In this document: in pieces, positions 1 through 16,990 of the stretch
Position numbering within the stretch: position 1 is the stretch's first letter
Layout of the letters: every line of letters starts with the position of its first letter
Origin: Gemmatimonadota bacterium
GTDB lineage: Bacteria > Gemmatimonadota > Gemmatimonadetes > Palauibacterales > KS3-K002
DNA length: 64,000 bases
Direction of reading: 5' to 3'
Assembly: GCA_039586755.1 (NCBI GenBank)
Contig: JBDHJU010000011.1
Location: 14,412-78,411 of the forward strand
Notes under the pieces: model-generated
The model's database searches: none
The model's input: only the letters and a program-made list of their open reading frames with translations
Told to the model about the DNA's origin: nothing
Translations under genes and position numbers: made by a program

Positions 1-733
1 TTTCGATTTCTTTCCCGTCGGAGGGCCGCTGGATCTTGCCCCCCGTGGGGCCGCCCACCGAGGCGAGGCGCTCCATCATCAGGTTGGTGATCACGTTCGG
101 GTATGTACCGAACCCCAGATTCTCGATCTGCTCGGCTGGGAACGGGTCCCAACCGGTCGCCCAGATCACAGCCTGAACGTCCAGCTCGATCGTCTCGGTC
201 CCCATATCGAGCTCGATTGCATCGTACGGACATGCCGGCACGCATTTCCCGCATTCGGCTCCCGGGCACACGCTACCGTCGATCGCGTACTGCAGCGGAT
301 GAGCCATCTCGAACGGCAGGTAGATTGCCTTGGTCACCGCCATCCCGAGGTTGAACTCATCAGCTCGCTCCACGGGGCAGGCCTCGACGCACTTGGCGCA
401 GGCCGTGCACTTGGCGTTCACAAAGCGTGGTGTTCGCTGGATGGTGGCTTTGTAGTTTCCGGGGCCGCCGGTGATCTTTTCGACCTGTGACAGCGTCAGG
501 CATCGAATGCGCGGGCTGGTCCTGAGGCGACGAAAGTGAATCTCCAGGCCGCAGGTCGGTGGGCAGAGCTTGGGAAAGTACAGGCTCATCTGAGCCACAC
601 GGCCGCCCAAGTGAGGGTTCTTCTCCACCAACACCACCTCGCAGCCTGCTTCGGATGCCTCGATCGCGGCGGCGATACCGCTTATGCCGCCGCCGATCAC
701 CAGGACCGTTCCCCGCTTCCCGTTTCCGCTCAT
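1..733 (-). CDS. qmoA: QmoA-like flavoprotein (HdrA-like FAD/FeS oxidoreductase), N-terminal ~244 aa; the C-terminus runs off the window start
   Basis: Minus-strand translation starts MSGNGKRGTVLVIGGGISGIAAAIEASEAGCEVVLVEKNPHLGGRVAQMSLYFPKLCPPTCGLE..., followed by CTACAKCVEACP ferredoxin-like cysteines. This is the GxGxxG FAD fold plus CPP/Cys clusters typical of QmoA/HdrA. The start ATG overlaps the upstream gene's stop (ATGA). Confidence 0.8.
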   Translation of the reverse strand, partial: MSGNGKRGTVLVIGGGISGIAAAIEASEAGCEVVLVEKNPHLGGRVAQMSLYFPKLCPPTCGLEIHFRRLRTSPRIRCLTLSQVEKITGGPGNYKATIQRTPRFVNAKCTACAKCVEACPVERADEFNLGMAVTKAIYLPFEMAHPLQYAIDGSVCPGAECGKCVPACPYDAIELDMGTETIELDVQAVIWATGWDPFPAEQIENLGFGTYPNVITNLMMERLASVGGPTGGKIQRPSDGKEIE

Positions 734-1626
734 GGTTTGTCCTCGTCGCGGGCCGTGGCCGGCTGACTGCTGAATACCTTCCTTTTGTCGAGGCTGCCCT
801 TGAAGGCATCGACTACTTCCGCCTTGGCCTTGACGGTCGGCTCGCCGAAGAGGCTGAACCGCAGCCAGAGGAACGCGAATCGTAGCAGCGCCTCGTCGTT
901 GTAGCGCATCTCTTCGACGAAGTCCTCATCCACATCGAACCGCTGCAGCAGCGTGCTGTCGAAAACGAACTCCCGGAACTTGTCCAGGTCGTAACAGGCG
1001 GTGAACAGCATGTGCATCTTCTGCGGCGAGAGGATCCCGCCATCCTCGAAGAACTTGTGGAGCGTCAGCTCCTTGTACGCCTCACCCCACTCGTCGTACT
1101 CGTCGATACCCTGGTCGTCGAGCCACTCGCGAACCGTCCACCGGTGCGACTCCGCGAATCCGCGGCAGCCCTCCTCCTGCAGGAGGAAGTAGAAGCGGTC
1201 ACCACGCCAGCCGTCCGGCGTGTCTTTTTGGGCCGCCAGCCCGAGTGGGTACATGCGGCAAGGCCATGGCCGGTCCGAGTAGACGCCGCAGCCGCCGTCC
1301 GTCAAGAACGGACAGGTCCGCACCTCGTCGTCGTTCATGCGGAGCATGACGACGGGGGTCTTCATGTCCTTCTGGACGGGCAGCAGTGCGTACTGGTCGA
1401 GGAAGTCGCTCGATGTCATCCCCAGGCGTCGCTTCAGGCGCAGGACATCGTACGGGGACAGGAAGATGTTCACGTCGCTGCAGCACTTATTGAAGCAGGA
1501 GACGCCGGGATGGCAGGCGAACTTGAAGGTGTCCTCGGGTCCGAGCCTGGCGTGATCGGTCAGGATTTTCTCCTCCAGGCGGCCATGGGGATCCTCAGAC
1601 GTCGGGGAACGTTGCTCGTCGGTCAT
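730..1626 (-). CDS. YkgJ/UPF0153-family Cys-cluster (zinc- or iron-chelating) protein, 298 aa, inserted between aprA and qmoA
   Basis: Motifs CHPGVSCFNKCC and TCPFLTDGGCGVYSDRPWPCRMYP match the YkgJ-type CxxCxxCC plus CPFL...C.IY..RP..CR.FP pattern. ATGA start/stop overlaps with both neighbours. Confidence 0.6.
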   Translation of the reverse strand: MTDEQRSPTSEDPHGRLEEKILTDHARLGPEDTFKFACHPGVSCFNKCCSDVNIFLSPYDVLRLKRRLGMTSSDFLDQYALLPVQKDMKTPVVMLRMNDDEVRTCPFLTDGGCGVYSDRPWPCRMYPLGLAAQKDTPDGWRGDRFYFLLQEEGCRGFAESHRWTVREWLDDQGIDEYDEWGEAYKELTLHKFFEDGGILSPQKMHMLFTACYDLDKFREFVFDSTLLQRFDVDEDFVEEMRYNDEALLRFAFLWLRFSLFGEPTVKAKAEVVDAFKGSLDKRKVFSSQPATARDEDKP

Positions 1627-1997
1627 TCATTTTCTCCTTCTTCGTTCTCCACGATCATCTCACGCGTCGCGGAGTCCGACCAGACCGGAATCATCGACGA
1701 GGCGCCAGTTGTGGGATTGACCATATATCGATACGACGCATGTTGACTAAACTGCTGTTCCATCCACTCCCAGCCCTCCCGGTAATACGAGCAGTCGTCG
1801 TTGAAGCAGACGTAGAGGAACTTCTCGGTCCACGTAGCGCCGTCCGGGACGATCCACTTCTTGAGACGCTGACCACAATGTGGACAGTCTCGGGAGATCT
1901 TGACCATCGGTATCCTCGATCGATTACTGGTTGCCGTGGGGATCCGTGCGCAGTCGATCACCTTGCCGGTATGGCTCGAAGAAACAACGCCTGACAT
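1623..1997 (-). CDS. Small Cys4 zinc-ribbon-like hypothetical protein (124 aa ORF; true start may be the internal Met giving ~94 aa)
   Basis: Contains CPHCGQ...CFNDDC, read as a C-x2-C ... C-x4-C zinc ribbon. The ORF sits between aprA and the YkgJ-like gene, and its stop overlaps the YkgJ start (ATGA). Confidence 0.45.
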   Translation of the reverse strand: MSGVVSSSHTGKVIDCARIPTATSNRSRIPMVKISRDCPHCGQRLKKWIVPDGATWTEKFLYVCFNDDCSYYREGWEWMEQQFSQHASYRYMVNPTTGASSMIPVWSDSATREMIVENEEGENE

Positions 1998-2080
1998 AGG
2001 ACAAGCCTGGGAGTGTGGAGCGGCCGGAACCTTCGAGCGTCGTGCCGTGACGCCCGAAGATCCCGGAGCTCGTGAACTAC

Positions 2081-3939
2081 CTAACTCGTGATGTACTTGA
2101 CGGGCTTCTTCATCATCGTCCAGTCGCCCGTGCCCCTGTCGTACTTGCAGTTGCAGAAGGCAAGCCAGTTCTTGTCGTCCATGCTCGGTTTGTCAGCGCG
2201 GAAGTAGTAGCCCGGCCAGCGGGTCTCCTCCCGGAACAAGATCGAGCGCATGTGGGCATCGGCCTGGTACATGCGGTGGACGTTCTCCCAGCAGCGCATC
2301 AGCTCGTGCAGGTTGGAGGCCGCCAGCTTCTCGGCATCTTCCTTCAGGAAGCTCAGCAGCTCCATGCCCTTTTCGAGCAGCTTGTCGCTGGTCTTGAACT
2401 GGCTGGACACACCACCCGCGTACTCGTCCATGATCTTCTGCAAGCGGTACATGAACTGCTGCGGGCGGATGTAGTTGGGGTTGATATCCGGGTCAGTGGT
2501 CATGCCACTGTACTCCTCGAACGTTGCCATGGGCCTGAGGATCTCTGCCGTCAGCGCGTCGACCTGGCCCTGATCCAGGTTGGGGGCCTGGTTGTTGTCG
2601 ACGATGTAGGAGATCGCGGCCTTGGCTGCGATACGACCCTCGGCATGTGAGCCGGAGGAGAACTTGTGGCTCGAGGCTCCTGAGGCGTCGCCGGCGGCGA
2701 ACATCCCGTTGACCGTGGTCATGTGCGGGTAACCCCAGAAGTAGTCGTCCTTCGTGTCGGCGGTCTGCAGATCCTCCGGACCGGAGACCCAGGCGCCGGA
2801 GGCGCCGGAGTGCGACCCGATGAAGTAGGGATCACAGGCCATGATCTCGGAAGCCTTCTTCTCGGGCTCGACGTTCGTGGCGGCCCAGAGGATCGCCTGC
2901 GAGATCGTCATGTCGAGGAAGTCCTCCCAAGCTTCGGCCTCGCGGGTGCCTCGTCGGCGATCTTCTTGATCGCGTCGGAGGTCTGCATGTAGATCGGGCT
3001 CTTGCCGTCCATCACGTCCAACATCATCAGCCAGTTGCGGATATTGGCAGGACGCGGCTTCACCTTGCCGTAGGGCTCCCACTTGTCGAGCTCGGCGGCG
3101 TTTTCCTGCATATAGTTGCCGCCCTCGGCGTTCGTCGCGATCGACTTGAAGAGCAGGAACCAGGCACCCACCGGGCCGTACGCGTCCTTGAACCGTACGG
3201 GGATGAAGCGAACTTCCTGGCAGGTCATCTCGGCACCGCCGTAGATCGTGAAGAAGGCGCTGGCGCCGGAGTTGAACGGCGGGTACCAGGAGCGGCCGAA
3301 GCCCTCACCGGTCGAACGCGGCTTGAACACGTGCACCGCACCGCCCATGGCGACCAGCGTGGCCTTTGCCTTGAACACGTAGATCTTATTCTCTCTGACG
3401 CTGAAACCGATCGCGCCCACGCACTTGTCGCCGTCCATCAGCGGGTGCGTGATGAACACGCGCTCGAAGTACTCGCCGCCGGCCTCTGCCAGCGCGTTCT
3501 TTGCCGCCTCAGCAACGATGACCTTGTAGGACTCGCCGTTGATCATCAGCTGCCAACGACCCTCGTGGACGTAGTTGCCTTCCTTGTCCTTCCAAATCGG
3601 CAGGCCCCACTTCTCGAACAGGTGGACAGTCGAGTCTACGTGGCGCGCGATGCTGGCCACGAGGTCCTCGCGGGTGATGCCCATGAGGTCGTTGCGGACG
3701 TAGTCGATGTAGTCCTTAAGACTGTTGTTGCCGCTGTTAAGGTCCACGTACTGGTTAATGGCCGACAGGCCCATGGCCACCGCTCCCGAGCGGTCCATGG
3801 CCGCCTTGTCCACCACGGTGACCTTCAACCCGTTCTTCTTCGCCCAATAGGACGCTTCGACCGCCGCTCCGCATGCGGCCATACCGCCGCCGCAGATAAG
3901 CAGATCGGTCTCAACCGTTACGGTCTCAAAATCCGGCAT
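2081..3939 (-). pseudogene. aprA: Adenylylsulfate (APS) reductase alpha subunit AprA, split into two overlapping ORFs (2908..3939 and 2081..3082) by a 1-nt frameshift near 2941-2952. This is either a pseudogene or a sequencing error.
   Basis: N-terminal ORF: MPDFETVTVETDLLICGGGMAACGAAVEA... (FAD fold). C-terminal ORF: ...EAEAWEDFLDMTISQAILWAATNVEPE...WGYPHMTTVNGMFAAGDASGASSHKFSSGSH... The junction reads KKIADEAP|AR.. in one frame and ..REAEAWEDFLD in the other, at a 'caccc' run. Confidence 0.85.
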
Positions 3940-3989
3940 TTTTCGTTGTCTCCTTCTTTTCGTCGTCCGAAGAGATCAAGTGTCGCCGA

Positions 3990-4457
3990 CTAGAGCGTTG
4001 GGACCTTGTCCATCTTGACCGGGCCGCGCTCCGTGTTGAGGCCCTGCGGCTCGCACATCAGCGTCGCGCTCTTCAGGTCATCGTCGCCTGTCGGATAGTG
4101 ATCGAACGGCTGAGCCTTACCTTCCTCGACGCCCCTGCGGATCGGGAACTTGAAGCGTTTCGGCTTGATGTCCTTACTGCGGAACTGCAGGGTCCACATG
4201 ATGTCCTCGCTGCTACGCATCGCCGTGACGCTCGCCCCCAGCGGGACGAAGTCCTGGTAACCGCGGACCTCGATAGCCTGCGTCGGGCAGATCTTCACGC
4301 AGCTGTAGCATTCCCAGCACATCTGCGGATCCTGGTTGAAGGCCTTCATGCTATCCTTGTTCAGGACCATGAGATCGTTCGGACAGATGTGCTGGCAGGC
4401 GGTCTTATCGAGCGCCTTGCAACCGTCACACTTGTCCACAATCACGTAACTCGGCAT
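3990..4457 (-). CDS. aprB: Adenylylsulfate reductase beta subunit AprB (2x[4Fe-4S] ferredoxin-like)
   Basis: MPSYVIVDKCDGCKALDKTACQHICPNDLMVLN...CWECYSCVKICPTQAIEVRGY. Strong AGGAGG RBS 7 nt upstream. Confidence 0.92.
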   Translation of the reverse strand: MPSYVIVDKCDGCKALDKTACQHICPNDLMVLNKDSMKAFNQDPQMCWECYSCVKICPTQAIEVRGYQDFVPLGASVTAMRSSEDIMWTLQFRSKDIKPKRFKFPIRRGVEEGKAQPFDHYPTGDDDLKSATLMCEPQGLNTERGPVKMDKVPTL

Positions 4458-4574
4458 CTCCGCGCCTCCTGGTTGAATTGTACGTACGCCTACATCTCTC
4501 CGGGGTGATCGCTAGCGAGTCGCCGAGGGGCTTCCGCGGGGGCGGGAAGCTGTATGTGACTGCTTAGGGTGGGG

Positions 4575-4635
4575 CTTGTGCGATTTTTTTCACGATTCTC
4601 GGCACTTACCGAGATTTTTGTCACGATTACAATCT
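4575..4635 (-). promoter_or_regulatory. AT-rich candidate operator/promoter element upstream of aprB. A 16-nt direct repeat flanks a 5-bp-arm palindrome.
   Basis: GATTTTTTTCACGATT (4583-4598) and GATTTTTGTCACGATT (4613-4628) match 15/16. Between them lies CTCGG-CACTTAC-CCGAG. An AT-rich island in a 65% GC background, ~130-170 nt upstream of the aprB start. Confidence 0.4.
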
Positions 4636-4772
4636 GGCAAGGTATTCCGCCCCGCGCAAGGAGGGCGAAGAAACATGATACCGTTGTGAGTTTTAGGCCG
4701 GAAACGACCCGCACGAAGCCTCTCTCGGGGCCTAGATCCGGGCCGGTGGGGGCGCTGCCTGGAGCAGGTCGC

Positions 4773-6965
4773 TCAGGAGCCGATTAGCGAGGGGAGGTGG
4801 TTCTCGATCCACTCCTCGACCTCGTCGACGGCGGCTGAGAAGTGGGGTTGGGAGCGCATGGCGTCTGCGAAACCGGCAACGGCCCGGTCGAGATCCTCGG
4901 CGGTCCAGAGTGATAGGCCGTTCGGCAAGTCGGTCGCGGGGATGGAGCCGAACGTGTTGAAGTCGATGACCCTGAGGGGCTCGGCGGTGAAATCGCGCAG
5001 ACCGCCCAGGGTTTTGGCATCGAAAAGGGGTTCTTGGCTGTCGACGCCGAAGTAGACGAAACCTGCATGGGCGATGGCGCGGGCGACGCCGGCCTCGGAG
5101 TACGACTGGACACGCAGGCGCTTCCCGTGGCCGACGGCACTGCGCAGCAGCTTGAGCTGGCCGTGGTGCCTCCTGTAGATCAGGGTCATCTGGCTCTGAG
5201 GTACGTCGAAGTGCTCGGACAGGGCGGAGAGGATCGAACGCGAAGTAGCCGATCCCCCGATGACGACGTGACGACACTCGTCCATGTGGGCGCCGTCGAC
5301 CTCCTGGACCCGTGCCAGGGCGGCCAGACAGAAGCTGGGGCTGAAACGACCCCATGCGGTCTCGGCTCGTACGTCGCGCGCGAGAGCCACGGCGTTTTTC
5401 ACCAGGCAGGTCGCTCGCGGACCTGCCGTGCCGGCGCGTTCGGCGGTCCGGCAGGCCGTCTGCAGCTGCGCCACCACGTCGGTGTCCCCGGGCAGGGCAC
5501 TATTCAGGCCGCAGGCGGTGCGCATCAGATGATGCCAGGCCTCGAAACCGAGCAGTGTGTTCACCTCTAGCCCTTCGGTCTCGGGACCGTACAGTCGGTC
5601 GCGGATCTGCTCGGCGACCCGCTTCCGCGCCGCGGGGTCGCCCGGATCGGCGAGCCAGCCGTAGAACTCGATCCGCTGACAGGTACTCCAGACGAACGCC
5701 TCGCTGATACCGGGCATCTCCCGCACCGAGTCGAGGAAGCCACGCACTTGTTTACGGGTCTTCCTAACCTTGCCGAAAACCCGGGGACGGCTGTACCGCA
5801 TGCGGGGACCGCGGCCGGAACGGACTCCGCCCTCGAACGAGGCGCCGATCATCACCAGCGACTCGGGCTCGCCGTCACAGAGTTCCAACTCCGGCTTCAG
5901 CCTCAGCAGCGGAACGGGCGCCGGCCGATCCGCCGTCACCGGACGCGGCCCCCTGAGCACCAGATTCCTGAGGGCTGCGACGAACGGCTCGGACGCGTTC
6001 AACCCAGGGCACAAGCTGAGTTGGCCGCCCCCCGACTCGAAGACCTCCCGGCATTCCACGTCGATCTCCCCCAGCGTCTCGAACCCGTCGATCGGCGCCG
6101 TGATCGCACTGACCAGCACCTTCTTCTCACCCGCGTCGGCGAGCTCGGCGAGCCTCTCGCTGATATGGGGGCGGAGCGAGCAGAGCGGCGCCGGGTGGGT
6201 CAGGAAGCCTAGCGAGGCCCTTTCCAGCGGCCAGCCCAGTCGGTCGGCGACCAGCCTGACCGTCCGTCTCACCTGACCCGTGTAGAGGGCCCCCCCCTGG
6301 CCCCGCGAGGCCGGCTGGCCGTGAGCGCAAAAGACCAGGTGCGCCTCATCCGGCCACAGGCCCTCCGACGCGGCATAGTCGGCGATAATTCGGGCCTGCG
6401 CTTTGACGTAACCCACGTCGTCATACCAGGTGGATCGAAGCGCCACATTGATGTGCTGCCCCCTGTGCCTCAGCACTCGGTGCAGCTCGCGAAGGATGGT
6501 GCCGGACGTGGCACGGTTGAACTGAGGGTACATCGGCACGACCACCAGATCGTCGATGCCGTCGGCTTCTACCTGGCTCATGACGTCGGCTATCTTCGGC
6601 TGGCCGTAGCGCATGGCCACGTAAACGGCCCAAGCCTCGGGCAGCGCCGCGGCGAGGGCCGAGGCCTGATCCGACATGAGGACCGCCTGCGGAGCTCCGC
6701 GCACGTCCCAGACTTTGCCGTACAGATCGGCTGAGGGGGCAGCCAGGCGCCCGGCCCGCATACGGCCGAGACCCCGCTGAAGCCAGTTCAGCCCCTGAGG
6801 CCACTTGACGAGCGAGGAGTCGGTGAATGACTCCGCCAGCAGCTTGCGCACCGATGGAACGTCGGGCCGATCGGGCGCTCCTAGACCGACCAGCAGGACG
6901 CCCCGGCGTCGCGAAGCCTGTGGTGGGCGATCCGCGCCCAATGACGGCTCTGTCTGGAGGTTCAC
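4773..6965 (-). CDS. Ferrochelatase (HemH/CpfC-like) fused to a glutamyl-tRNA reductase (HemA)-like domain, 730 aa
   Basis: N-terminal half: VLLVGLGAP...VVPMYPQFNRATSG...HLVFCAHGQP (ferrochelatase signatures). C-terminal half: ISEAFVWSTCQRIEFYGW...EAWHHLMRTACGLNSALPGDTDVVAQLQTA...RDVRAETAWGR...HVVIGGSATSRSIL (GluTR STCNR-type catalytic Cys region and NADPH-domain-like region). Confidence 0.65.
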   Translation of the reverse strand: MNLQTEPSLGADRPPQASRRRGVLLVGLGAPDRPDVPSVRKLLAESFTDSSLVKWPQGLNWLQRGLGRMRAGRLAAPSADLYGKVWDVRGAPQAVLMSDQASALAAALPEAWAVYVAMRYGQPKIADVMSQVEADGIDDLVVVPMYPQFNRATSGTILRELHRVLRHRGQHINVALRSTWYDDVGYVKAQARIIADYAASEGLWPDEAHLVFCAHGQPASRGQGGALYTGQVRRTVRLVADRLGWPLERASLGFLTHPAPLCSLRPHISERLAELADAGEKKVLVSAITAPIDGFETLGEIDVECREVFESGGGQLSLCPGLNASEPFVAALRNLVLRGPRPVTADRPAPVPLLRLKPELELCDGEPESLVMIGASFEGGVRSGRGPRMRYSRPRVFGKVRKTRKQVRGFLDSVREMPGISEAFVWSTCQRIEFYGWLADPGDPAARKRVAEQIRDRLYGPETEGLEVNTLLGFEAWHHLMRTACGLNSALPGDTDVVAQLQTACRTAERAGTAGPRATCLVKNAVALARDVRAETAWGRFSPSFCLAALARVQEVDGAHMDECRHVVIGGSATSRSILSALSEHFDVPQSQMTLIYRRHHGQLKLLRSAVGHGKRLRVQSYSEAGVARAIAHAGFVYFGVDSQEPLFDAKTLGGLRDFTAEPLRVIDFNTFGSIPATDLPNGLSLWTAEDLDRAVAGFADAMRSQPHFSAAVDEVEEWIENHLPSLIGS

Positions 6966-7459
6966 GGCTGGGGTTTGAGCTTGCGATCCTGGCCGATGAG
7001 ATCGGTGATCTGGTCGCGTGTGCGTCTCGCCAGCGCCGGATCGCGTCCATCGGTGAAGACGGCGATCGTGACGTCCTCACTTTGCAGCAGAGCTCCAAAG
7101 ATTACCTGCGAGCGCTCGGCCGATGACGCGTCGCACGCCAGTGCGCCGTTCCGAACTGCAGCTTGGACGACGGCGGCGTTGCGGTCATCCTCATCCGTGG
7201 CGGCGACGGCGAGGAACTTGCTACCCATGTGCTCTTCGCGGAACGAGTCCTGTACCCAGCGGACGCGGCCGGCCTCGATCAGCTGGGCGAGCTCGTCTGT
7301 AACCTCGGGTGATACCACGGTAACGACGGCCCCGGCATGCGTGAGGGTGATGACTTTGCGAGTCCCGACATTTCCGCCACCCACGACCAGGCAGTCCTTG
7401 TTCCGGACGTCGAGTCCTAGCGGCAGAAAGCGTAGCCTGTCCGAGGGGTCGCTGGTCAT
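6962..7459 (-). CDS. sirC: Precorrin-2 dehydrogenase / sirohydrochlorin ferrochelatase-like (SirC / CysG N-terminal domain-like) siroheme synthesis protein
   Basis: LPLGLDVRNKDCLVVGGGNVGTRKVITLTHAGAVVTVVSPEV...AVAATDEDDRNAAV is a Rossmann NAD-binding pattern typical of Met8/SirC. Overlaps the downstream fusion gene start by 4 nt. Confidence 0.7.
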   Translation of the reverse strand: MTSDPSDRLRFLPLGLDVRNKDCLVVGGGNVGTRKVITLTHAGAVVTVVSPEVTDELAQLIEAGRVRWVQDSFREEHMGSKFLAVAATDEDDRNAAVVQAAVRNGALACDASSAERSQVIFGALLQSEDVTIAVFTDGRDPALARRTRDQITDLIGQDRKLKPQP

Positions 7460-7488
7460 GTCCTCCGGGGCCTTCTTATAGTCTCGTT

Positions 7489-7941
7489 TCAGTGGCCGAC
7501 GCTCAATATACCGCTCGCCGCGAGTGTCAGGATGGCAGCCTCCAACAGGGCCATGACCACGTAGGGCGTATCTCGTTTCTTGATTAGCGTGGGGACGATT
7601 CCCAAGAAGCAGAAGATGGTCACTGCGGAAAGCACGGCGATCCCCAGAAAATTCAGATAGTCACCCTTTCCGATCACGGACAGCCAGGACCATCCGGATA
7701 TCGGGTGCTCATGGTGCAGGTGGTCGTGATTCGTCGCCTCCAGATAGTCGTGGACGTTCATCGTCCAGTACTCGGGGAGTTGTTCCACCGGAACGGCCGG
7801 CGCAACGATGCCGCTGGTGTAAAGGGCAAAGGTCACGAGTAGGAGGGCCAGCCCGAAGTACATGCCGGTCTGGAGGATCTTGGCGTAGAGGAGTTGTTCC
7901 TCGTCAGCGCCAGGGCAATCTACGTTGCCGTTCGTCTCCAT
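7489..7941 (-). CDS. Small polytopic membrane protein (DUF1634-like) of the kind commonly paired with TauE/SafE exporters
   Basis: 150 aa with ~3-4 hydrophobic segments, 15 nt downstream of the TauE gene on the same strand. Confidence 0.5.
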   Translation of the reverse strand: METNGNVDCPGADEEQLLYAKILQTGMYFGLALLLVTFALYTSGIVAPAVPVEQLPEYWTMNVHDYLEATNHDHLHHEHPISGWSWLSVIGKGDYLNFLGIAVLSAVTIFCFLGIVPTLIKKRDTPYVVMALLEAAILTLAASGILSVGH

Positions 7942-7956
7942 GTTTACACTCGCTCC

Positions 7957-8988
7957 CTAAACGATGAACGGGAGGCCGAGTCCCTTGGTGATCGCCTTGG
8001 CCCCGGCGAAGAGCAGCAGGGCGATGACGACCCAGCGAACGAACCCCGGCCTCGCGATCCGCAGGATTCGTACGCCGATAAACGACCCCAGCATTATGCC
8101 TACCAGTGACGGCACTACCATCATTGGGATTACGGCGCCCTTGTTAACATAGATCCAGGCCGCCGACGTGTCAGTGATTGACAAAAGGAATTTGCTGGTC
8201 GCCACACTGACCTTGAGCGGCGCTCCCATCACCAGGTTCAGAACCGGGATGTTGGCCCAACCGGCGCCCAGTCCGAACATCCCCGCCATCACGCCTATAA
8301 CAATGAACAGTAGCAAGCCGGGCACAGTACGGTGAACCTTCCAGTTGATCGTCTGACCCATGCTCGCCTCTGTGTACACGCCACAGATCCGCAACGCCGA
8401 AGAGACACGGTCTGGCTCAGCGACCTCCGGGAACACCGATTTCTTCGCTGCGATCATTATCGCGACAATCCCCAGGATGGTCGCTCCGAGGGCTGTCTGG
8501 ACAATATTCGTCGGTAGAGCGAGGCCGATCATCGCTCCGACGATCGCACAAGTCGAGGCGATCAGGGCCACAGGCATCGCCAGGCGCAGGCTGGCCAGGT
8601 TCATCTTCAGGAAGCCCGGCCCGGCGGCGAGCGCGCCGCTTAGCGCCACCAGAAGCCCACAGCCGCGAACGAAGTCGAGGTGGAAGGGAAAGAACCCACT
8701 CACGATCGGAACGAACAGAACGCCTCCGCCCACACCGCCCAGAGCCGCGAGGATGCCCATGACGAACGTGAGCACGAACAGGATGAGCGGCCACACCCAC
8801 CATGCTGTCGTGCTGCTGGAGACCGCTGGCGCCGTCAGATCGCTCGCCTGGATGACGGTTGGGTAGAGCAGCAGGAAAAGGCAGAGAAGTGCGCCCGTAA
8901 GATACGGCATGAATCGTCGCGTTCCTAAGATGTTCACCTGGCCTCGACTCGGGGTTCCACGCGACATCGTGATAATCGCACGATTCAA
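7957..8988 (-). CDS. TauE/SafE (DUF81) family sulfite/anion exporter
   Basis: 343 aa polytopic protein with the duplicated GxGGG motif LAALGGVGGGVLFVPIVSGFF and a second-half repeat. Confidence 0.75.
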   Translation of the reverse strand: MNRAIITMSRGTPSRGQVNILGTRRFMPYLTGALLCLFLLLYPTVIQASDLTAPAVSSSTTAWWVWPLILFVLTFVMGILAALGGVGGGVLFVPIVSGFFPFHLDFVRGCGLLVALSGALAAGPGFLKMNLASLRLAMPVALIASTCAIVGAMIGLALPTNIVQTALGATILGIVAIMIAAKKSVFPEVAEPDRVSSALRICGVYTEASMGQTINWKVHRTVPGLLLFIVIGVMAGMFGLGAGWANIPVLNLVMGAPLKVSVATSKFLLSITDTSAAWIYVNKGAVIPMMVVPSLVGIMLGSFIGVRILRIARPGFVRWVVIALLLFAGAKAITKGLGLPFIV

Positions 8989-9183
8989 CCTGATGCGAGA
9001 TATGCTCGGCGGCGCGCGGTGTCAAGCTGAGCGGAGTGTGGGCTGTCTCATCGCTGGAGAAAGGTCGAGCAATATGATATCTTGCGGTGGCCGCTTTTCT
9101 CGTGCGAGGCCTCGCGACGTATTGCGCCTCGCGAGTCCGAAGGCGCTCAGCATCCACGCGAGCCCACATGTGGGCCAGGAGTC

Positions 9184-9834
9184 ATGAGCACGACTGAAGA
9201 TCGGGAAGCGGCGTTTATAGGCAAGATAACCGCCGGCGCCACCCATGAGCTCCGCAACGTTCTGGCAATCGTAAAAGAATCTGCGGGCCTGATCGAAGAC
9301 ATCGTCAATTCCCCCGACAAACCTGGGACAGATAAAGCCGACAGGCTAATGCGGCCGATTGCGCGGATTCGGGACCAGGTCGAGCGCGGATCGGAGCTCC
9401 TCACGAGCCTGAATCGATTCGCCCACAGCATGGATCACGCAGAGGACGAGACCGACCTGAACGAGATGGCCGAGCTGCTCGCGTTCCTATGCCAGCGAGC
9501 GGCCAGAAGGGGGAGGCATCTGGTAGAAGCGCAGCCGGGGGACCAGGCCCTGACGGTAGTGGCCAACCTGCTTCGGCTGCAGATGGCTCTGCACGCAGCC
9601 GTCGAGTGCTGTCTTGAGCAGTTGCCCGAGCGTGGCAAGCTGACCCTCAAGGCGGTTCGGCACGGAGATCGACCGGCGCTCGAGTTCAATGGTGAGTCCG
9701 AGGGTGAGGCAGTTTCATTCGTGCCAAACGAGGCCGCAGCTTGGAGCCGGCTGGCGGCGGTCCTCGACGACCTGGATGCATCGGTGGAGAAAGCCGAAGC
9801 AGAGCAGGGTTTCCGGCTCGCCCTTTCGGGGTGA
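9184..9834 (+). CDS. HisKA-domain protein with a degenerate (G1/G2-box-less) HATPase-like C-terminal region. Likely a pseudo-kinase or phosphotransfer protein.
   Basis: TAGATHELRNVLAIVKES is an H-box. The downstream region (ANLLRLQMALHAAVECC ... EQGFRLALSG) resembles N/G2 boxes but lacks DxGxG and GxGLGL. The ATG at 9184 is preferred over the ORF-track start at 9082. Confidence 0.55.
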   Translation: MSTTEDREAAFIGKITAGATHELRNVLAIVKESAGLIEDIVNSPDKPGTDKADRLMRPIARIRDQVERGSELLTSLNRFAHSMDHAEDETDLNEMAELLAFLCQRAARRGRHLVEAQPGDQALTVVANLLRLQMALHAAVECCLEQLPERGKLTLKAVRHGDRPALEFNGESEGEAVSFVPNEAAAWSRLAAVLDDLDASVEKAEAEQGFRLALSG

Positions 9835-9858
9835 TGCGAGCTTGGCAGTGGGGAGGAT

Positions 9859-10785
9859 TTGATGAGCAAAATCAAGCTGCTCCTCGTCGATGACGAAGAA
9901 GCCTACGTAAAGACGCTGGCCGAGAGAATGGAGATGCGCGACGTCGGCAGTCGCGTGGCCTTGAGCGGCGAAGAGGCGCTGGAGATGCTCGAGGACGAGC
10001 CGCCCGACGTGATGGTTCTCGACCTCCGCATGCCGGGCATCGACGGGATGGAAGTGTTAGAGCGGGTCAAGCAGAAGCATCCCCACGTAGAAGTGATCAT
10101 TCTCACCGGGCACGGCTCGGACAGAGAGGAAAAGGAGGCGCGCAGGCTGGGGGCGTTCGAGTACCTGCAGAAGCCGGCGGATACGAGTCACCTCCTGAAT
10201 ACCGTTCGGGCGGCTTGGCGAAAGAGCTTGAAGGCCGCCGCCGAGTTCATCAAGGACTCGCAGGAAGAATTCGACAGGAGCATGGCTGCGGCAGCTTTCG
10301 CTGAGGCGGGCGCGCCGGAGATCGCCAGGGAGACGATGCAGGAGTCGACCCCGCGACCCGACGTGGACACCGATGAAGCCGGCGCCGCGGAGGCCGACGC
10401 CGCCACTCAGACGCTCAAGGTCCTGTTCGTTGATGACGAAGAGGACTTCGTGCGGACCATGGCCGAACGAATGGAGATGCGCGACGTGGGCAGCGAGGTG
10501 GCGCTGGATGGACAGCAGGCATTGGAGATGCTCGAGGACGAAGTACCGGACGTCATGGTTCTCGACCTGCGTATGCCGGGCATCGACGGCTTGGAGGTAT
10601 TGCGGCGCGTCAAGAGGACGTATCCAGAGATGGCAGTGATCATCATGACCGGCCATGGGTCGGAGGCGGACGAAGCAGAAGCTCGCCGCTTGGGGGCGTT
10701 TGATTACCTGACCAAGCCGGTCGACATCAATCAGCTCATGGATGTTATCCGCGAAGCGGGTCGCTCGCGTCGGAAAGCGGAGTAG
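9859..10785 (+). CDS. Tandem-receiver (REC-REC) response regulator with no output domain
   Basis: Two CheY-like domains: (1) LLLVDDEEAY...DVMVLDLRMPGIDG...ILTGHG...EYLQKP and (2) VLFVDDEEDF...DVMVLDLRMPGIDG...IMTGHG...DYLTKP. All phospho-acceptor residues are present. Confidence 0.85.
   Translation: MMSKIKLLLVDDEEAYVKTLAERMEMRDVGSRVALSGEEALEMLEDEPPDVMVLDLRMPGIDGMEVLERVKQKHPHVEVIILTGHGSDREEKEARRLGAFEYLQKPADTSHLLNTVRAAWRKSLKAAAEFIKDSQEEFDRSMAAAAFAEAGAPEIARETMQESTPRPDVDTDEAGAAEADAATQTLKVLFVDDEEDFVRTMAERMEMRDVGSEVALDGQQALEMLEDEVPDVMVLDLRMPGIDGLEVLRRVKRTYPEMAVIIMTGHGSEADEAEARRLGAFDYLTKPVDINQLMDVIREAGRSRRKAE
9862..10745 (+). repeat. Intragenic tandem duplication: the two REC-coding halves (~9862-10190 and ~10420-10745) are ~80% identical at DNA level
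   Basis: The DVMVLDLRMPGIDG-coding stretches are near-identical. Antisense spurious ORFs are also duplicated (9903..10106 and 10407..10646). Confidence 0.7.
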
Positions 10786-10809
10786 GGATGGGCGGTCGGG
10801 TTAACGAAG

Positions 10810-12573
10810 ATGATGGTGGAGACGGTAAGCCTGGTTGACGGAACGGGGGAAGATCAAGATCAACTGATCTCCCGACGGCGCTACAGGAAGATGATTCTCG
10901 TGGCGGTGCTTTCGGTATCGGCTGTAGCCGTCGCTCCGCTTCTCATCATGTCGAGTATTACCTACCACCAGTATCAGGAGGCGTTCCGAGCTGAGCTGAC
11001 CCGCCCCATGCTGCGGTTCGCCGTGGCCGGTAAGCAGGCGATCGAGTCCTACCTCTCGGAGCAGGTAGCGGCTCTCGCCATGGTGGCGCGCGAGACGTCG
11101 CTCAAGGAGCTTCGTGACCCGGGAAGGTTGAGCTCGTTGCTCACCAACATGAACCAGACCTTTGGCGGAGTGGTCGAGCTCAGCATGATCAACGAGGGGG
11201 GCGTGCAGGTCGCCTATGCCGGTCCGGGGGAGCCGCAGGCGGTCAGCTACGCGGACGATCGGTGGTTCCGAGAGGTCAGCGCCCGCGGCACGTACGTTAG
11301 CGACATGTTCCTGGGGCACCGAAACGACCCCCACATGGTTGTCGCGATCCAGCACGAAGACTCGGAAGGGAATCGGTACATCTTACGTGCGACGCTCGAT
11401 ACCGATCCATTCCACTGGCTAGTGCGCGCTCGTACGGCCCGCCGTCCGGAACTCAACCAGGTCTGTCGCAGATGCCATTCGCTGGGGGCCCAACAATTCA
11501 GCGACGCGTTCATCGTCAACCGCGAAGGTGTCCTGCAGAGTTCCTCGCGTCTTTATGGCGGCGTGTTGGAGCGCACCCCCTTACCGACTTTTCCGTACAG
11601 CAGTCAGGTGGAGCTTGTCGATGTAGTGGACGAGCAGGGAGAGCCGCTCATCGTATGTTACGCGCAGATCGATCGCTCGCCGTTTACGCTGGTGGTGTTG
11701 AGTCCTCGCATCGCTCTGCACGCGGGTTGGTTCCCGCTGCGCCGCGACCTGCTGGTATTTCCGGCGATCAGCGTCGCGCTGATTCTGGCAGTCGTCATCT
11801 GGGGTTCGATCTACGTGGTGAACCGCGTTCGCGAGGCGGATGCAAAGCGCGCGGCGCTCTACCACAAGATGGAGTACACCAACAAGATGGCCGCTATCGG
11901 GCGCCTGGGTGCCGGTGTGGCTCACGAGATCAACAACCCGCTGTCGATCATCACCCAGAACGCGGGACTGCTGAAGGATCTGATCACGCTGTCCGAGGAG
12001 TTACCCCCGAGGGATAAGCTGACCCATCTGGTGAATTCGGTTCTCAACGCCGCCGAGCGCTGTGGTGGGATTACCCACCGTCTCCTGGGTTTCGCCAGGC
12101 ACATGGAAGTGCAATGGGAGACTATCGATCTCGATGGGTTGCTCAGAGAAGTCCTGGAGTTCCTTGGGAAGGAAGCCAGCTACCGTGACATCCAGATCGA
12201 ATTCAAATACTCCGGTACGCCGCCTCCCATCGTCAGCGACAGGGGGCAGTTGCAGCAAGTGTTCCTGAACATCGTCAACAATGCTTTCGCCGCAGTCGAT
12301 GATGGTGGGCAGATCGAGATTGGGATTGAACAGCTTGGGGACGACGCCGTTGCGGTGACCATCGCCGACGATGGCGTAGGCATTCCTGAGGAACAGCTGG
12401 GGCAGATCTTCGATCCGTTCTTTACGACGAAGAAAGGTGCGGGGACGGGCCTGGGTCTCTCCATTACATATGGGATAGTGCAAAAACTGGGTGGGCAGAT
12501 CAGCGTCGAGAGCAAGGTGGGTGAAGGTACCTGCTTCACAGTCACACTGCCGATACGTCGGGCGCACGCCTAG
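10810..12573 (+). CDS. Sensor histidine kinase with a periplasmic sensing domain (Cache-like)
   Basis: N-terminal TM (MILVAVLSVSAVAVAPLLIM), ~270-aa extracytoplasmic region, second TM, H-box AGVAHEINNPLSII, N-box NIVNNAFAAV, G1 DDGVGIP, G2 GTGLGLSITYGIV. Confidence 0.85.
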   Translation: MMVETVSLVDGTGEDQDQLISRRRYRKMILVAVLSVSAVAVAPLLIMSSITYHQYQEAFRAELTRPMLRFAVAGKQAIESYLSEQVAALAMVARETSLKELRDPGRLSSLLTNMNQTFGGVVELSMINEGGVQVAYAGPGEPQAVSYADDRWFREVSARGTYVSDMFLGHRNDPHMVVAIQHEDSEGNRYILRATLDTDPFHWLVRARTARRPELNQVCRRCHSLGAQQFSDAFIVNREGVLQSSSRLYGGVLERTPLPTFPYSSQVELVDVVDEQGEPLIVCYAQIDRSPFTLVVLSPRIALHAGWFPLRRDLLVFPAISVALILAVVIWGSIYVVNRVREADAKRAALYHKMEYTNKMAAIGRLGAGVAHEINNPLSIITQNAGLLKDLITLSEELPPRDKLTHLVNSVLNAAERCGGITHRLLGFARHMEVQWETIDLDGLLREVLEFLGKEASYRDIQIEFKYSGTPPPIVSDRGQLQQVFLNIVNNAFAAVDDGGQIEIGIEQLGDDAVAVTIADDGVGIPEEQLGQIFDPFFTTKKGAGTGLGLSITYGIVQKLGGQISVESKVGEGTCFTVTLPIRRAHA

Positions 12574-15520: not shown

Positions 15521-16339
15521 CTAGGGGTACGGGTCAAACCACTCGACGTTCAGGCGAACCTGATCTACGCCCGGTACCGAGCGGGCGATCTCCACGATCT
15601 CTTGCCCCATCCGGCCGGACTTGAGGGCCGGAGCGCTGCCGGATACCTCTATTACTCCGTCGTGCCCTTCGATCTGGAGATCGAGGACGCGAGTCTCGCG
15701 CGTGCTCGCCAGGGCGGCCTTGACCCGAGACGCCATACGGAAGTCCATGAGCTTTGCCTTCACTTCGGGGGTGACGGCGAAGTCCGGCTGCCTCACCGCC
15801 CGCGCCACGATATTGCAGGCGGCGGGCACCGACAGGGTCTGCAGGTTGATCACCATATCGTACAGTGCCGGATCCTCGATGTCCTCACCGTACATCATCT
15901 TGACCCAGCGGGCCCGCGCTGCGTCGACGTGCTGTATGTACTCTTCGGCTGAAGTCGGGGTCATTTCGTTACGCTCCAGCAGCGTAGACACTCGTGCGCC
16001 CATGGGAGCGATCAGGCGCACCCGCAAAACAGCTGGAAGTCCCGCGAGCAGCATTTGCCCAGCGCGACCGTGGTAGACCAGATCTCCGCCGACGGTGTGT
16101 TCGGCGAGGGCTGCCTGGATTGTCGCGATGTAAGCACGCCGTACCGACGCGTGCCGCTTCCACAATCTCGGGGCGCGCTCCATCGCGCGGCTCAGCTCCT
16201 GCTCTGAAATACCGAGCTCAGAGGCCGCATCCTGAAGGACCTCCCGCGCAACCAGCGGATACTGAAGTTCCTCAGCAAGGCATTCCGCCAGCGCCTGGCC
16301 GCCGCTTTGCGTGCCCCGACAAATACTTATAATAGCCAC
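15521..16339 (-). CDS. Cytidylate-kinase-like family (Cytidylate_kin2-type, no P-loop lysine) protein with a C-terminal BON-like domain
   Basis: N-terminus MAIISICRGTQSGGQALAECLAEELQYPLVAREVL. C-terminus VLDLQIEGHDGVIEVSGSAPALKSGRMGQEIVEIARSVPGVDQVRLNVEW. Confidence 0.6.
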   Translation of the reverse strand: MAIISICRGTQSGGQALAECLAEELQYPLVAREVLQDAASELGISEQELSRAMERAPRLWKRHASVRRAYIATIQAALAEHTVGGDLVYHGRAGQMLLAGLPAVLRVRLIAPMGARVSTLLERNEMTPTSAEEYIQHVDAARARWVKMMYGEDIEDPALYDMVINLQTLSVPAACNIVARAVRQPDFAVTPEVKAKLMDFRMASRVKAALASTRETRVLDLQIEGHDGVIEVSGSAPALKSGRMGQEIVEIARSVPGVDQVRLNVEWFDPYP

Positions 16340-16342
16340 GTC

Positions 16343-16990
16343 TCAGCCTTCTCCCGCCTGTTGGAGCTGCTCGCGGCACTTGGCTGCAAAGGCTGCGAGC
16401 TTCTGCTTCACATCGTCGGTCATCTCGTACTGTGGCTGTGCCGCCGCTTCTGCGATGATCTCGCACGCCGTCTCGAGGGAGATCGACTGCAGGTTGATGG
16501 TTAGATCGTATAACGAAGGATCCTCGACATCCGCCCGGTACATCAGCTTCACCCAACGCCGGCGGTCTTCGTCCACGTCTTGAATGAACTCCTCGGCCGC
16601 CTTATGGGTCATGCGGTGGTGCGAGTCCATCAATGCCCGCATGCGCATCTCGAGCGGCGCGATGAGCCGGACAGCCAGTACGCCGGGAAGCTCACGCAGC
16701 AGGAATTGCCCGGCCAGTCCGTGGTAAACCACTTCACCGGTCGTACAGTGCTCGGCCAGGGCAGTCTGAACGGCGAGCAAATACGTCTTGCGCTCCTGGG
16801 TCAGTCGAGCCCAGCGAGATGGGGTCGCCTCGAGCTTGCCGCTCAGATCCTCCTCTGACGCTCCTAACTTCTTGGCGGCCTCCTGAAGGATCTCGCGCCC
16901 GACGCAGGGATAGTTGAGCGCGCGGGCGAGACACTCCGCCGTCGCGCGGCCTCCGCTAAGCGTTCCACGGGAAATCGTAATAATAGCCAC
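16343..16990 (-). CDS. Cytidylate-kinase-like family protein, tandem paralog of the gene at 15521-16339
   Basis: MAIITISRGTLSGGRATAECLARALNYPCVGREILQEAAKKLG... aligns along its whole length with the downstream gene. 3-nt spacer. Confidence 0.6.
   Translation of the reverse strand: MAIITISRGTLSGGRATAECLARALNYPCVGREILQEAAKKLGASEEDLSGKLEATPSRWARLTQERKTYLLAVQTALAEHCTTGEVVYHGLAGQFLLRELPGVLAVRLIAPLEMRMRALMDSHHRMTHKAAEEFIQDVDEDRRRWVKLMYRADVEDPSLYDLTINLQSISLETACEIIAEAAAQPQYEMTDDVKQKLAAFAAKCREQLQQAGEG

Follow-up and report, generated by a model that had tools for sequence, protein, structure and literature searches.

Gene content and organisation of the locus

The stretch of DNA analysed here (the window) comprises 64,000 nt from a Gemmatimonadota bacterium (GCA_039586755.1, contig JBDHJU010000011.1, positions 14,412 to 78,411 of the forward strand), one end of which carries the genes for the dissimilatory reductase of adenosine 5'-phosphosulfate (APS), aprB and aprA, and the 5' part of qmoA. 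Between aprA and qmoA lie two further genes, encoding an acidic zinc-ribbon protein (ZnF) and a 298-residue YkgJ-type cysteine-cluster protein. This pair recurs beside apr/qmo genes across at least eight phyla and in several gene orders, so that the two proteins are probably previously undescribed helper components of the APS reductase/Qmo system. The features of the locus, in the direction of transcription, are as follows:

4582-4596 and 4613-4627, minus strand: two copies of the repeated motif ATCGTGA[A/C]AAAAATC, 125-170 nt upstream of aprB
3990-4457, minus strand: aprB, 155 aa; NCBIfam aprB equivalog at 181.5 bits (cut-off 135.65) and Pfam APS-reductase_C
2081-3939, minus strand: aprA, its frame split by a 34-bp deletion into open reading frames (ORFs) 2908-3939 and 2081-3082
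2024-2066, minus strand: intercistronic RNA hairpin, its G+C-rich stem 18 bp long
1623-1907, minus strand: gene for the 94-aa acidic zinc-ribbon protein ZnF (Pfam Ogr_Delta); the mechanical ORF reaches 1997
730-1626, minus strand: gene for the 298-aa YkgJ-type cysteine-cluster protein, Pfam PF03692 (CxxCxxCC)
1-733, minus strand, leaving the window: 5' part of qmoA (244 codons), HdrA-like, with FAD and Fer4 domains

An earlier note on this DNA had read the order as aprB, aprA, a Cys4 gene, a YkgJ-type gene and qmoA, and this is borne out by the ORFs and by NCBIfam and Pfam searches. The note had also asked whether qmoB and qmoC follow qmoA outside the window, and both are present in the sibling contigs L001-L003; in L001, the YkgJ-type gene is followed by qmoA (420 aa), qmoB (748 aa) and qmoC (419 aa), beyond which lie sat, an OsmC-family gene, dsrC, an RsbRD_N-domain gene, dsrM and dsrK. 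The locus is a dissimilatory APS reductase/Qmo cluster, in which aprB and aprA equivalogs are followed by qmoABC, with aprA intact and the qmoABC set complete in L001-L003.

Translation of the window places ATGA stop/start overlaps between ZnF and the YkgJ-type gene at 1626-1623 and between the latter and qmoA at 733-730; both junctions had been described in the earlier note, and both recur in related loci. The accompanying statement that all of the genes are translationally coupled fails for the step from aprA to ZnF, where a 173-nt spacer opening with a conserved hairpin lies between the two genes. As the note had argued from these junctions, the pair may be synthesised stoichiometrically with QmoA, but stop/start overlaps are no proof of stoichiometry; its further suggestion, that the two proteins may act as subunits or maturation factors, is likewise putative.

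The YkgJ-type cysteine-cluster protein

The 298-aa protein matches Pfam PF03692 over residues 40-129 (32.1 bits, gathering score 23, E 1.9e-7), its homologues carry the database name 'YkgJ family cysteine cluster protein', and both of its cysteine blocks are present, in agreement with its original assignment as a YkgJ-type CxxCxxCC/CPFL protein. Among 109 cluster representatives, eight cysteines (C38-x5-C44-x3-C48-C49, C105, C113, C123 and C154) show at least 97% conservation, and in two curated alignments (A1 and A3) they are invariant. The signatures LxPYD, RP and CRxYP are conserved in the family, and the distal block CPF...GxC..Y..RP..CR..P is present. Homologues number 2514 in total, and the best 120 of these 2514 exhibit 73-86% identity with the window protein.

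In the AlphaFold2 model (predicted local distance difference test score, pLDDT, 82.8; predicted template modelling score 0.78), the cysteine-rich N-terminal half is poor in regular secondary structure and the C-terminal half is helical; the latter is conserved and belongs to no Pfam family. No relative was found in the PDB by sequence profile search or by Foldseek, no NCBIfam family was matched at E<=10, and no relatives were found among IMG/VR viral contigs. The protein is acidic and of a soluble type, with no hydrophobic stretch longer than 6 residues. Ratios of nonsynonymous to synonymous substitution (dN/dS) of 0.08-0.14 indicate strong purifying selection, and among 35 complete loci the YkgJ-like protein has a median identity of 72% with its counterpart in the window, level with QmoA (72%) and QmoB (74%), above QmoC (60%) and below AprA and AprB (88%).

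A Pfam check proposed beforehand, on whether the protein is a QmoC/HdrB-type subunit with CCG domains, showed that it is not. HdrB was rejected as an identity because no CCG domain (PF02754) was found and PF03692 was the only match at a Pfam E<=1, and QmoC was rejected because Fer4 and NarI/Nitrate_red_gam domains are missing and the true qmoC (419 aa) is present in L001. Separately, one cluster representative, P0339 (690 aa), combines a radical-SAM domain (88-238) with a YkgJ-like domain (453-686) that shares 38% identity with the protein of the window.

The zinc-ribbon protein

The zinc-ribbon protein had been read as 124 aa from the mechanical ORF, and this is corrected here to 94 aa. Homologues are mostly 94 aa long and align from M31 of the longer ORF; among seven close relatives, codons 1-30 of that ORF are nearly neutral (dN/dS 0.46-1.67), as against 0.10-0.23 in the core; and a GAGGA sequence precedes the ATG at 1907 by 7 nt. 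These observations place the gene at 1623-1907, and the 30-codon extension to 1997 is probably untranslated.

ZnF matches Pfam Ogr_Delta (PF04606) at 32.4-33.1 bits (cut-off 26.3), a match that covers the 47-residue finger only. The four cysteines of this CX2CX22CX4C finger (C8, C11, C34 and C39) are invariant, and the C-terminal half is conserved and aromatic-rich (ASYRY..NPTTG...PVWSD.ATREMIV), ending in an acidic tail. ZnF is acidic (median isoelectric point 4.6, finger part 5.0) and has no long hydrophobic runs; its AlphaFold2 model has a pLDDT of 82.3. No PDB relative was found by sequence profile or by structure, the lone sequence match (E 0.76) being meaningless, no NCBIfam family was matched even at E<=10, and no relatives were found among IMG/VR viral contigs. 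The acidity of the protein, its lack of viral-contig relatives and the absence of any enrichment of the site TGT-N12-ACA set it apart from phage late-gene activators.

The pair is conserved beside aprA across phyla

Scanning a single genome for each GTDB species yielded 71 loci, which were sampled by similarity rather than randomly and in which the relatives found were all at 51% identity or above. These loci belong mainly to Gemmatimonadota (best match 95% identity) and Planctomycetota, and the remainder to Latescibacterota, Desulfobacteraceae UBA2156, other metagenome-assembled genomes (MAGs) of Desulfobacterota or 'delta proteobacterium', a Spirochaetales MAG and a Chitinivibrionia MAG. The ZnF gene lies directly upstream of the YkgJ-like gene in 67/67 of them, and aprA lies within 1.5 kb upstream in 54/55, the exception (L008) having a masked run of N at that position. 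The gene directly downstream of the YkgJ-like gene is qmoA in 57/65 loci. Overlaps of 4 nt join ZnF to the YkgJ-like gene in 36/43 loci, and the YkgJ-like gene overlaps qmoA by 4 nt in 33/57 and by 1 nt in 10/57. The homologues are overwhelmingly apr-linked, which answers the concern of the earlier note that they might never be found with apr genes elsewhere.

Two variants are seen among the eight loci in which qmoA is not directly downstream. In L026 and L034, a second YkgJ paralogue takes the place of qmoA. In L017, L030 and L074 (~3800-11700 in each), the order sat-aprBA-ZnF-YkgJ continues with a QmoC-like gene, and neither qmoA nor qmoB lies within 8 kb in either direction. Inspection of the ORFs in L017 identified genes for TauE and a small membrane protein between the YkgJ-like and QmoC-like genes, the product of the latter having a Fer4 dicluster domain and a NarI-like membrane domain. 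This sat-aprBA-ZnF-YkgJ-QmoC-like variant may represent a minimal Apr-to-membrane module. AprA is 83-96% identical across phyla, and the island is clearly mobile between them.

An exhaustive HMMER search over 1.84 billion cluster representatives identified 1973 clusters at E<=1e-3, of which 193 (clusters at 50% identity) scored E<=1e-30; most of the best-scoring clusters align almost end to end, at 35-50% identity. Among sister clades at ~50% identity, Zixibacteria (e.g. L078) possess the order qmoAB-sat-aprBA-ZnF-YkgJ, a Bacteroidota MAG (L080) the same order followed by qmoC, and Abyssubacteria the order sat-aprBA-ZnF-YkgJ-qmoABC. These orders show that ZnF-YkgJ stays at the 3' end of aprA when qmoAB is elsewhere, and the pair is attached more tightly to aprA than to qmoA. 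The functional link to Apr/Qmo put forward in the earlier note is strongly supported by synteny across phyla.

A metagenome scan was seeded with clades 35-47% identical to the window protein (14-sequence alignment) and returned 80 loci, in which the commonest neighbours are QmoA/B (26), QmoC (22), ZnF (20), AprA (18) and AprB (11). Flanking sequence of at least 3 kb on each side is available for 23 loci; in 16 of them apr, qmo or sat lies within 6 kb, in 3 dsrA is present, and the other 4 lack all of these genes. Gene order is more varied at this distance: aprBA may be divergent from the YkgJ gene; aprBA may be followed by a SEC-C/HEAT gene, ZnF, inverted tandem YkgJ genes and qmoA; or qmoABC may precede a small Cys-rich gene, YkgJ genes in tandem, a SEC-C gene and an oppositely oriented ZnF. 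Since the link to apr/qmo outlasts deep divergence and many rearrangements, it is not an artefact of hitch-hiking.

Some of these distant loci (L164 3538-9941; L166 3-8229; L099, L115, L125 and L134) carry an extra set of metal-motif genes near apr-qmo. YkgJ paralogues occur there as a tandem pair overlapping by 4 nt, ZnF lies on the other strand, and the set further includes a SEC-C-motif/HEAT-repeat protein of 437 aa or a SEC-C protein of 250 aa, together with a Cys-rich protein of ~90 aa. One YkgJ subclade (L120, L155 and L162, ~5000-12300) is found away from apr/qmo, at ~4 kb upstream of dsrA, where dapA and the genes for a TPR protein and an uncharacterised 396-aa protein share its conserved block.

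The aprA frame, the intercistronic hairpin and the upstream motif

In an alignment with L001, aprA in the window lacks 34 bp, ACGAGAAGTCGGCGAAGAAGAAGCTGAAGGAGCT, a loss that the earlier note had not noticed, with the junction between 2943 and 2942 and the frame shifted; the NCBIfam aprA profile is matched from 1 to 321 by ORF 2908-3939 and from 325 to 614 by ORF 2081-3082 (457.5 and 408.5 bits). In five near-identical Joint Genome Institute assemblies (L001-L005), aprA is intact at 630 aa and the flanking DNA is 99.6-100% identical. The deletion may be genuine, or it may be an error of assembly in a purine-rich stretch. It falls exactly in a Lys-rich loop of AprA, DEKSAKKKLKELE (residues ~330-345, window ~2900-2960), and the lost segment encodes part of this loop, DEKSAKKKLKEL. 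In an alignment of 83 AprA sequences, the loop reads (A/T)PDEKxAKKKLKELE in lineages with the YkgJ gene directly after aprA, and is shorter by six residues, e.g. MDKKELKHLE, in loci with a divergent YkgJ gene (L091, L094, L106, L135 and L136).

The hairpin starts 15 nt past the aprA stop codon and has no U-run after its stem. Of 64 related loci, 63 have a stem of 8 bp or more after the aprA stop codon (median z -4.3), and in L007-L076 the stem is G+C-rich, 13-20 bp long and in the same position. An RNAalifold consensus of 24 sequences contains 15 pairs, 11 of which show compensatory changes, and no Rfam family was matched. The hairpin is probably an intercistronic stabiliser or attenuator that parts the abundant aprBA message from the downstream genes.

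The two copies of ATCGTGA[A/C]AAAAATC upstream of aprB are 31 nt apart and are the sole matches in the 64 kb, where none are expected. The related form CGTGA-N5/6-ATC occurs upstream of aprB in 33/50 related loci, with 1-5 copies each, at a density of 2.8 per kb against a background of 0.07 per kb (~40-fold). From its sequence, the motif is probably an operator resembling a CRP/FNR-like pair of half-sites.

Comparison with known systems

The canonical aprBA-qmoABC cluster, known from sulfate reducers and green sulfur bacteria (e.g. Desulfovibrio vulgaris DVU0846-0850), exhibits the same gene order and orientation as the present locus, which also has sat and dsrC nearby; the differences are the two extra genes between aprA and qmoA and the conserved hairpin after aprA. 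The 298-aa protein shares the motifs CPF..GxCxxYxxRPxxCRxYP and the hidden Markov model match with E. coli YkgJ/PF03692 (UPF0153, COG0727), but it adds a conserved helical C-terminal domain, is about three times as long as YkgJ, and belongs to a subfamily tied to apr/qmo. ZnF has the same four-cysteine spacing as the Ogr/Delta activators of P2-like phages, CX2CX22CX4C being the finger spacing of the P2 Ogr transcription activator; ZnF differs in being acidic rather than basic, in its unrelated conserved C-terminal half, and in being cellular and embedded in an operon. HdrB/HdrD of the qmoAB-hdrBC variants are, like the 298-aa protein, Cys-rich and cytoplasmic and lie beside qmoAB; the 298-aa protein is without CCG domains, and qmoC is retained in its locus.

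Salmonella FliB resembles the 298-aa protein in its N-terminal cysteine motif ending in CC, its eight conserved cysteines and its cytoplasmic location (PMC8598068). The CX4CX3CC motif of FliB binds a [4Fe-4S] cluster, sensitive to oxygen, that is required for the S-adenosylmethionine (SAM)-dependent methylation of flagellin lysines (PMC8598068); the motif is CX5CX3CC in the present protein, and FliB is ~400 aa long, has another C-terminal part and belongs to a flagellar context. DVU0851 ('QmoD') is, like the pair, uncharacterised, abundant and co-expressed with qmoABC (PMC3125180, PMC10920352). It differs in lying after qmoC and reportedly has no homologues outside Desulfovibrio; on this literature description as Desulfovibrio-specific it was set aside as an orthologue.

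A full-text literature search, which did not take in most subscription-journal papers, found no mention of YkgJ-type or ZnF genes with apr/qmo, and the pair goes unmentioned in Neukirchen 2023, Diao 2023, a marine Gemmatimonadota study, the cable-bacteria repertoire paper and Ramos 2012. The apr-qmo operon itself is known, and the conserved accessory pair within it is probably undescribed. That only MAGs and metagenome contigs were found to carry it may explain why the pair has gone unremarked.

Proposed role of the pair

The pair would be transcribed together with aprBA, 3' of a hairpin that would lower or segment expression, and ZnF, the YkgJ-like protein and QmoA would be translated as a coupled chain. 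The 298-aa protein is predicted to be a soluble cytoplasmic iron-sulfur protein with at least one [4Fe-4S] cluster on its N-terminal CX5CX3CC motif, and its four other invariant cysteines could hold a second cluster or a metal site; the 94-aa zinc-ribbon protein would be its protein-binding partner. Together they might dock on the AprBA/QmoA(B) interface and there serve electron transfer, or redox-dependent assembly, between Qmo and AprB. The expectation of cluster binding comes by analogy from spectroscopy of FliB, and association with Apr/Qmo and the type of activity are likewise putative. We regard the chances as about even that the pair acts at the cytoplasmic Apr-Qmo interface as a redox relay or in redox-dependent assembly. 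Three observations favour this placement: in several permutations the gene sits between those for Apr and Qmo, the YkgJ-like protein is under constraint equal to that on the Qmo flavoproteins, and in some loci a QmoC-like gene comes after YkgJ where qmoAB is absent.

Several observations weigh against a role at the interface. AprAB is known from crystals only as an alpha-beta dimer. Electron transfer from Qmo to Apr in Desulfovibrio was reportedly observed by Duarte et al. 2016 without extra proteins, and these two points together make a universal, obligatory subunit unlikely. Every carrier in the GTDB-species and metagenome scans is a MAG or a metagenome contig, the four long loci mentioned above have no sulfur gene within 6 kb, and L132, L133 and L161 possess aprBA-YkgJ-qmoABC with no ZnF at the ZnF position. 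P0339 fuses a radical-SAM domain to the YkgJ-like domain, and FliB, the sole characterised relative, is an enzyme and not an electron carrier (PMC8598068).

The main rival reading is that the 298-aa protein is a FliB-like [4Fe-4S], possibly SAM-dependent enzyme that modifies AprA, AprB, a Qmo subunit or a cofactor, with ZnF as its substrate adaptor, the pair together constituting a maturation system and not a redox partner. We consider this unlikely, but less so than the other alternatives. FliB, the only relative studied biochemically, is a [4Fe-4S]/SAM-dependent lysine methyltransferase with a comparable CX4CX3CC motif and eight conserved cysteines (PMC8598068), and the Lys-rich AprA loop (DEKxAKKKLKELE), which is six residues longer in the aprA-YkgJ lineages than in those with a divergent YkgJ, provides a lead and nothing firmer. 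The zinc-motif proteins added in some lineages (SEC-C/HEAT and small Cys-rich) resemble an assembly toolkit more than a wire, and P0339 gives a weak hint of SAM chemistry, although it is a single case and a possible gene-call artefact. The first cysteine spacer is, however, x5 here and x4 in FliB, no SAM-binding motif was found in the 298-aa protein, and to our knowledge no modification of AprAB is known. The protein also matches no NCBIfam model at E<=10, so that membership of the FliB family is unsupported, on the assumption that this library contains a FliB model.

A regulatory pair, in which an Ogr/Delta-type ZnF controls the apr/qmo promoter and the iron-sulfur protein senses redox state or sulfite, would account for the above-cut-off Ogr_Delta match with its CX2CX22CX4C spacing and for the conserved, repeated operator-like motif upstream of aprB. 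This role is disfavoured because ZnF is acidic, unlike a DNA binder, because upstream of aprB the Ogr-type sites TGT-N12-ACA show no enrichment (5 loci, where 3.2 would be expected), and because the motif does not track ZnF: it is CRP/FNR-like and absent in 17/50 loci, all of which have the ZnF gene. The Pfam match is moreover limited to the finger, viral-contig relatives are lacking, and we judge regulation by the pair to be improbable. It is less probable still that the two genes play no part in APS reduction and have merely spread horizontally with the island as passengers; the mobility of the island between phyla, with AprA 83-96% identical among them, would suit such a history, but the association holds at 35-50% identity and through at least five gene orders, purifying selection is strong, and the 298-aa protein is as conserved as QmoA and QmoB. 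Hardly any weight is given to the idea that the 298-aa protein is a disguised HdrB CCG or QmoC subunit in a qmoAB-hdrBC-like variant of the locus. Such a subunit would likewise be Cys-rich and beside qmoA, and Gram-positive sulfate reducers do have hdrBC in place of qmoC (PMC10504309), but PF03692 is the only domain found, there is no transmembrane stretch, and a complete qmoC follows qmoB in L001.

Returning to a role at the Apr-Qmo interface, Ramos et al. 2012, who used QmoABC and AprAB in purified form, could detect no electron transfer from menaquinol to APS and suggested that a third partner takes part (PMC3333476). The YkgJ protein and its zinc-ribbon partner might be this 'third partner' of the Qmo-Apr step, either as a relay or as the entry point of a second, low-potential donor, and might replace QmoAB in L017, L030 and L074; we put this forward as a speculation that is more likely to be wrong than right by a wide measure.

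Neighbouring genes

Directly upstream of aprB on the minus strand (4773-6965), a ferrochelatase domain is fused to the N-terminal domain of glutamyl-tRNA reductase (730-aa ORF; 692 aa in L001). Beside this fusion gene, at 6962-7459 on the minus strand, lies an NAD_binding_7 (siroheme-synthase-like) gene; the two form an unusual tetrapyrrole-synthesis pair that is kept in the closest Gemmatimonadota loci. Further along the minus strand, 7489-7941 and 7957-8988 between them encode a TauE/SafE-family permease and a small DUF1634/AF_1016-like membrane protein. Genes of these two kinds accompany the apr cluster in several lineages (L017 8912-10428; L080 11366-12596), and in L017 they lie directly 3' of the YkgJ-like gene with a 4-nt overlap. 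At 15521-16339 and 16343-16990, again on the minus strand, are two adjacent paralogues that both start (V)AII(S/T)I(C/S)RG(T)xSGG and that by eye resemble the cytidylate-kinase-like (Cytidylate_kin2 + BON) genes flanking the apr-qmo cluster of L080.

Implications

Dissimilatory sulfate reduction takes its first redox step with the reduction of APS, and the reverse reaction is the last redox step when sulfur is oxidised. The path of electrons between the quinone pool, Qmo and AprAB, and the conservation of energy there, are still debated (PMC3333476). A concrete pair of proteins can now be named for expression, purification and testing, and, if the third-partner proposal is true, aprBA-ZnF-YkgJ together with the QmoC-like protein of L017, L030 and L074 might constitute a minimal quinone-to-APS reductase module. 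Annotation is affected as well: a pipeline that treats 'aprBA-qmoABC' as contiguous will mis-split operons of this kind, and both families could serve as markers of this Apr/Qmo lineage.

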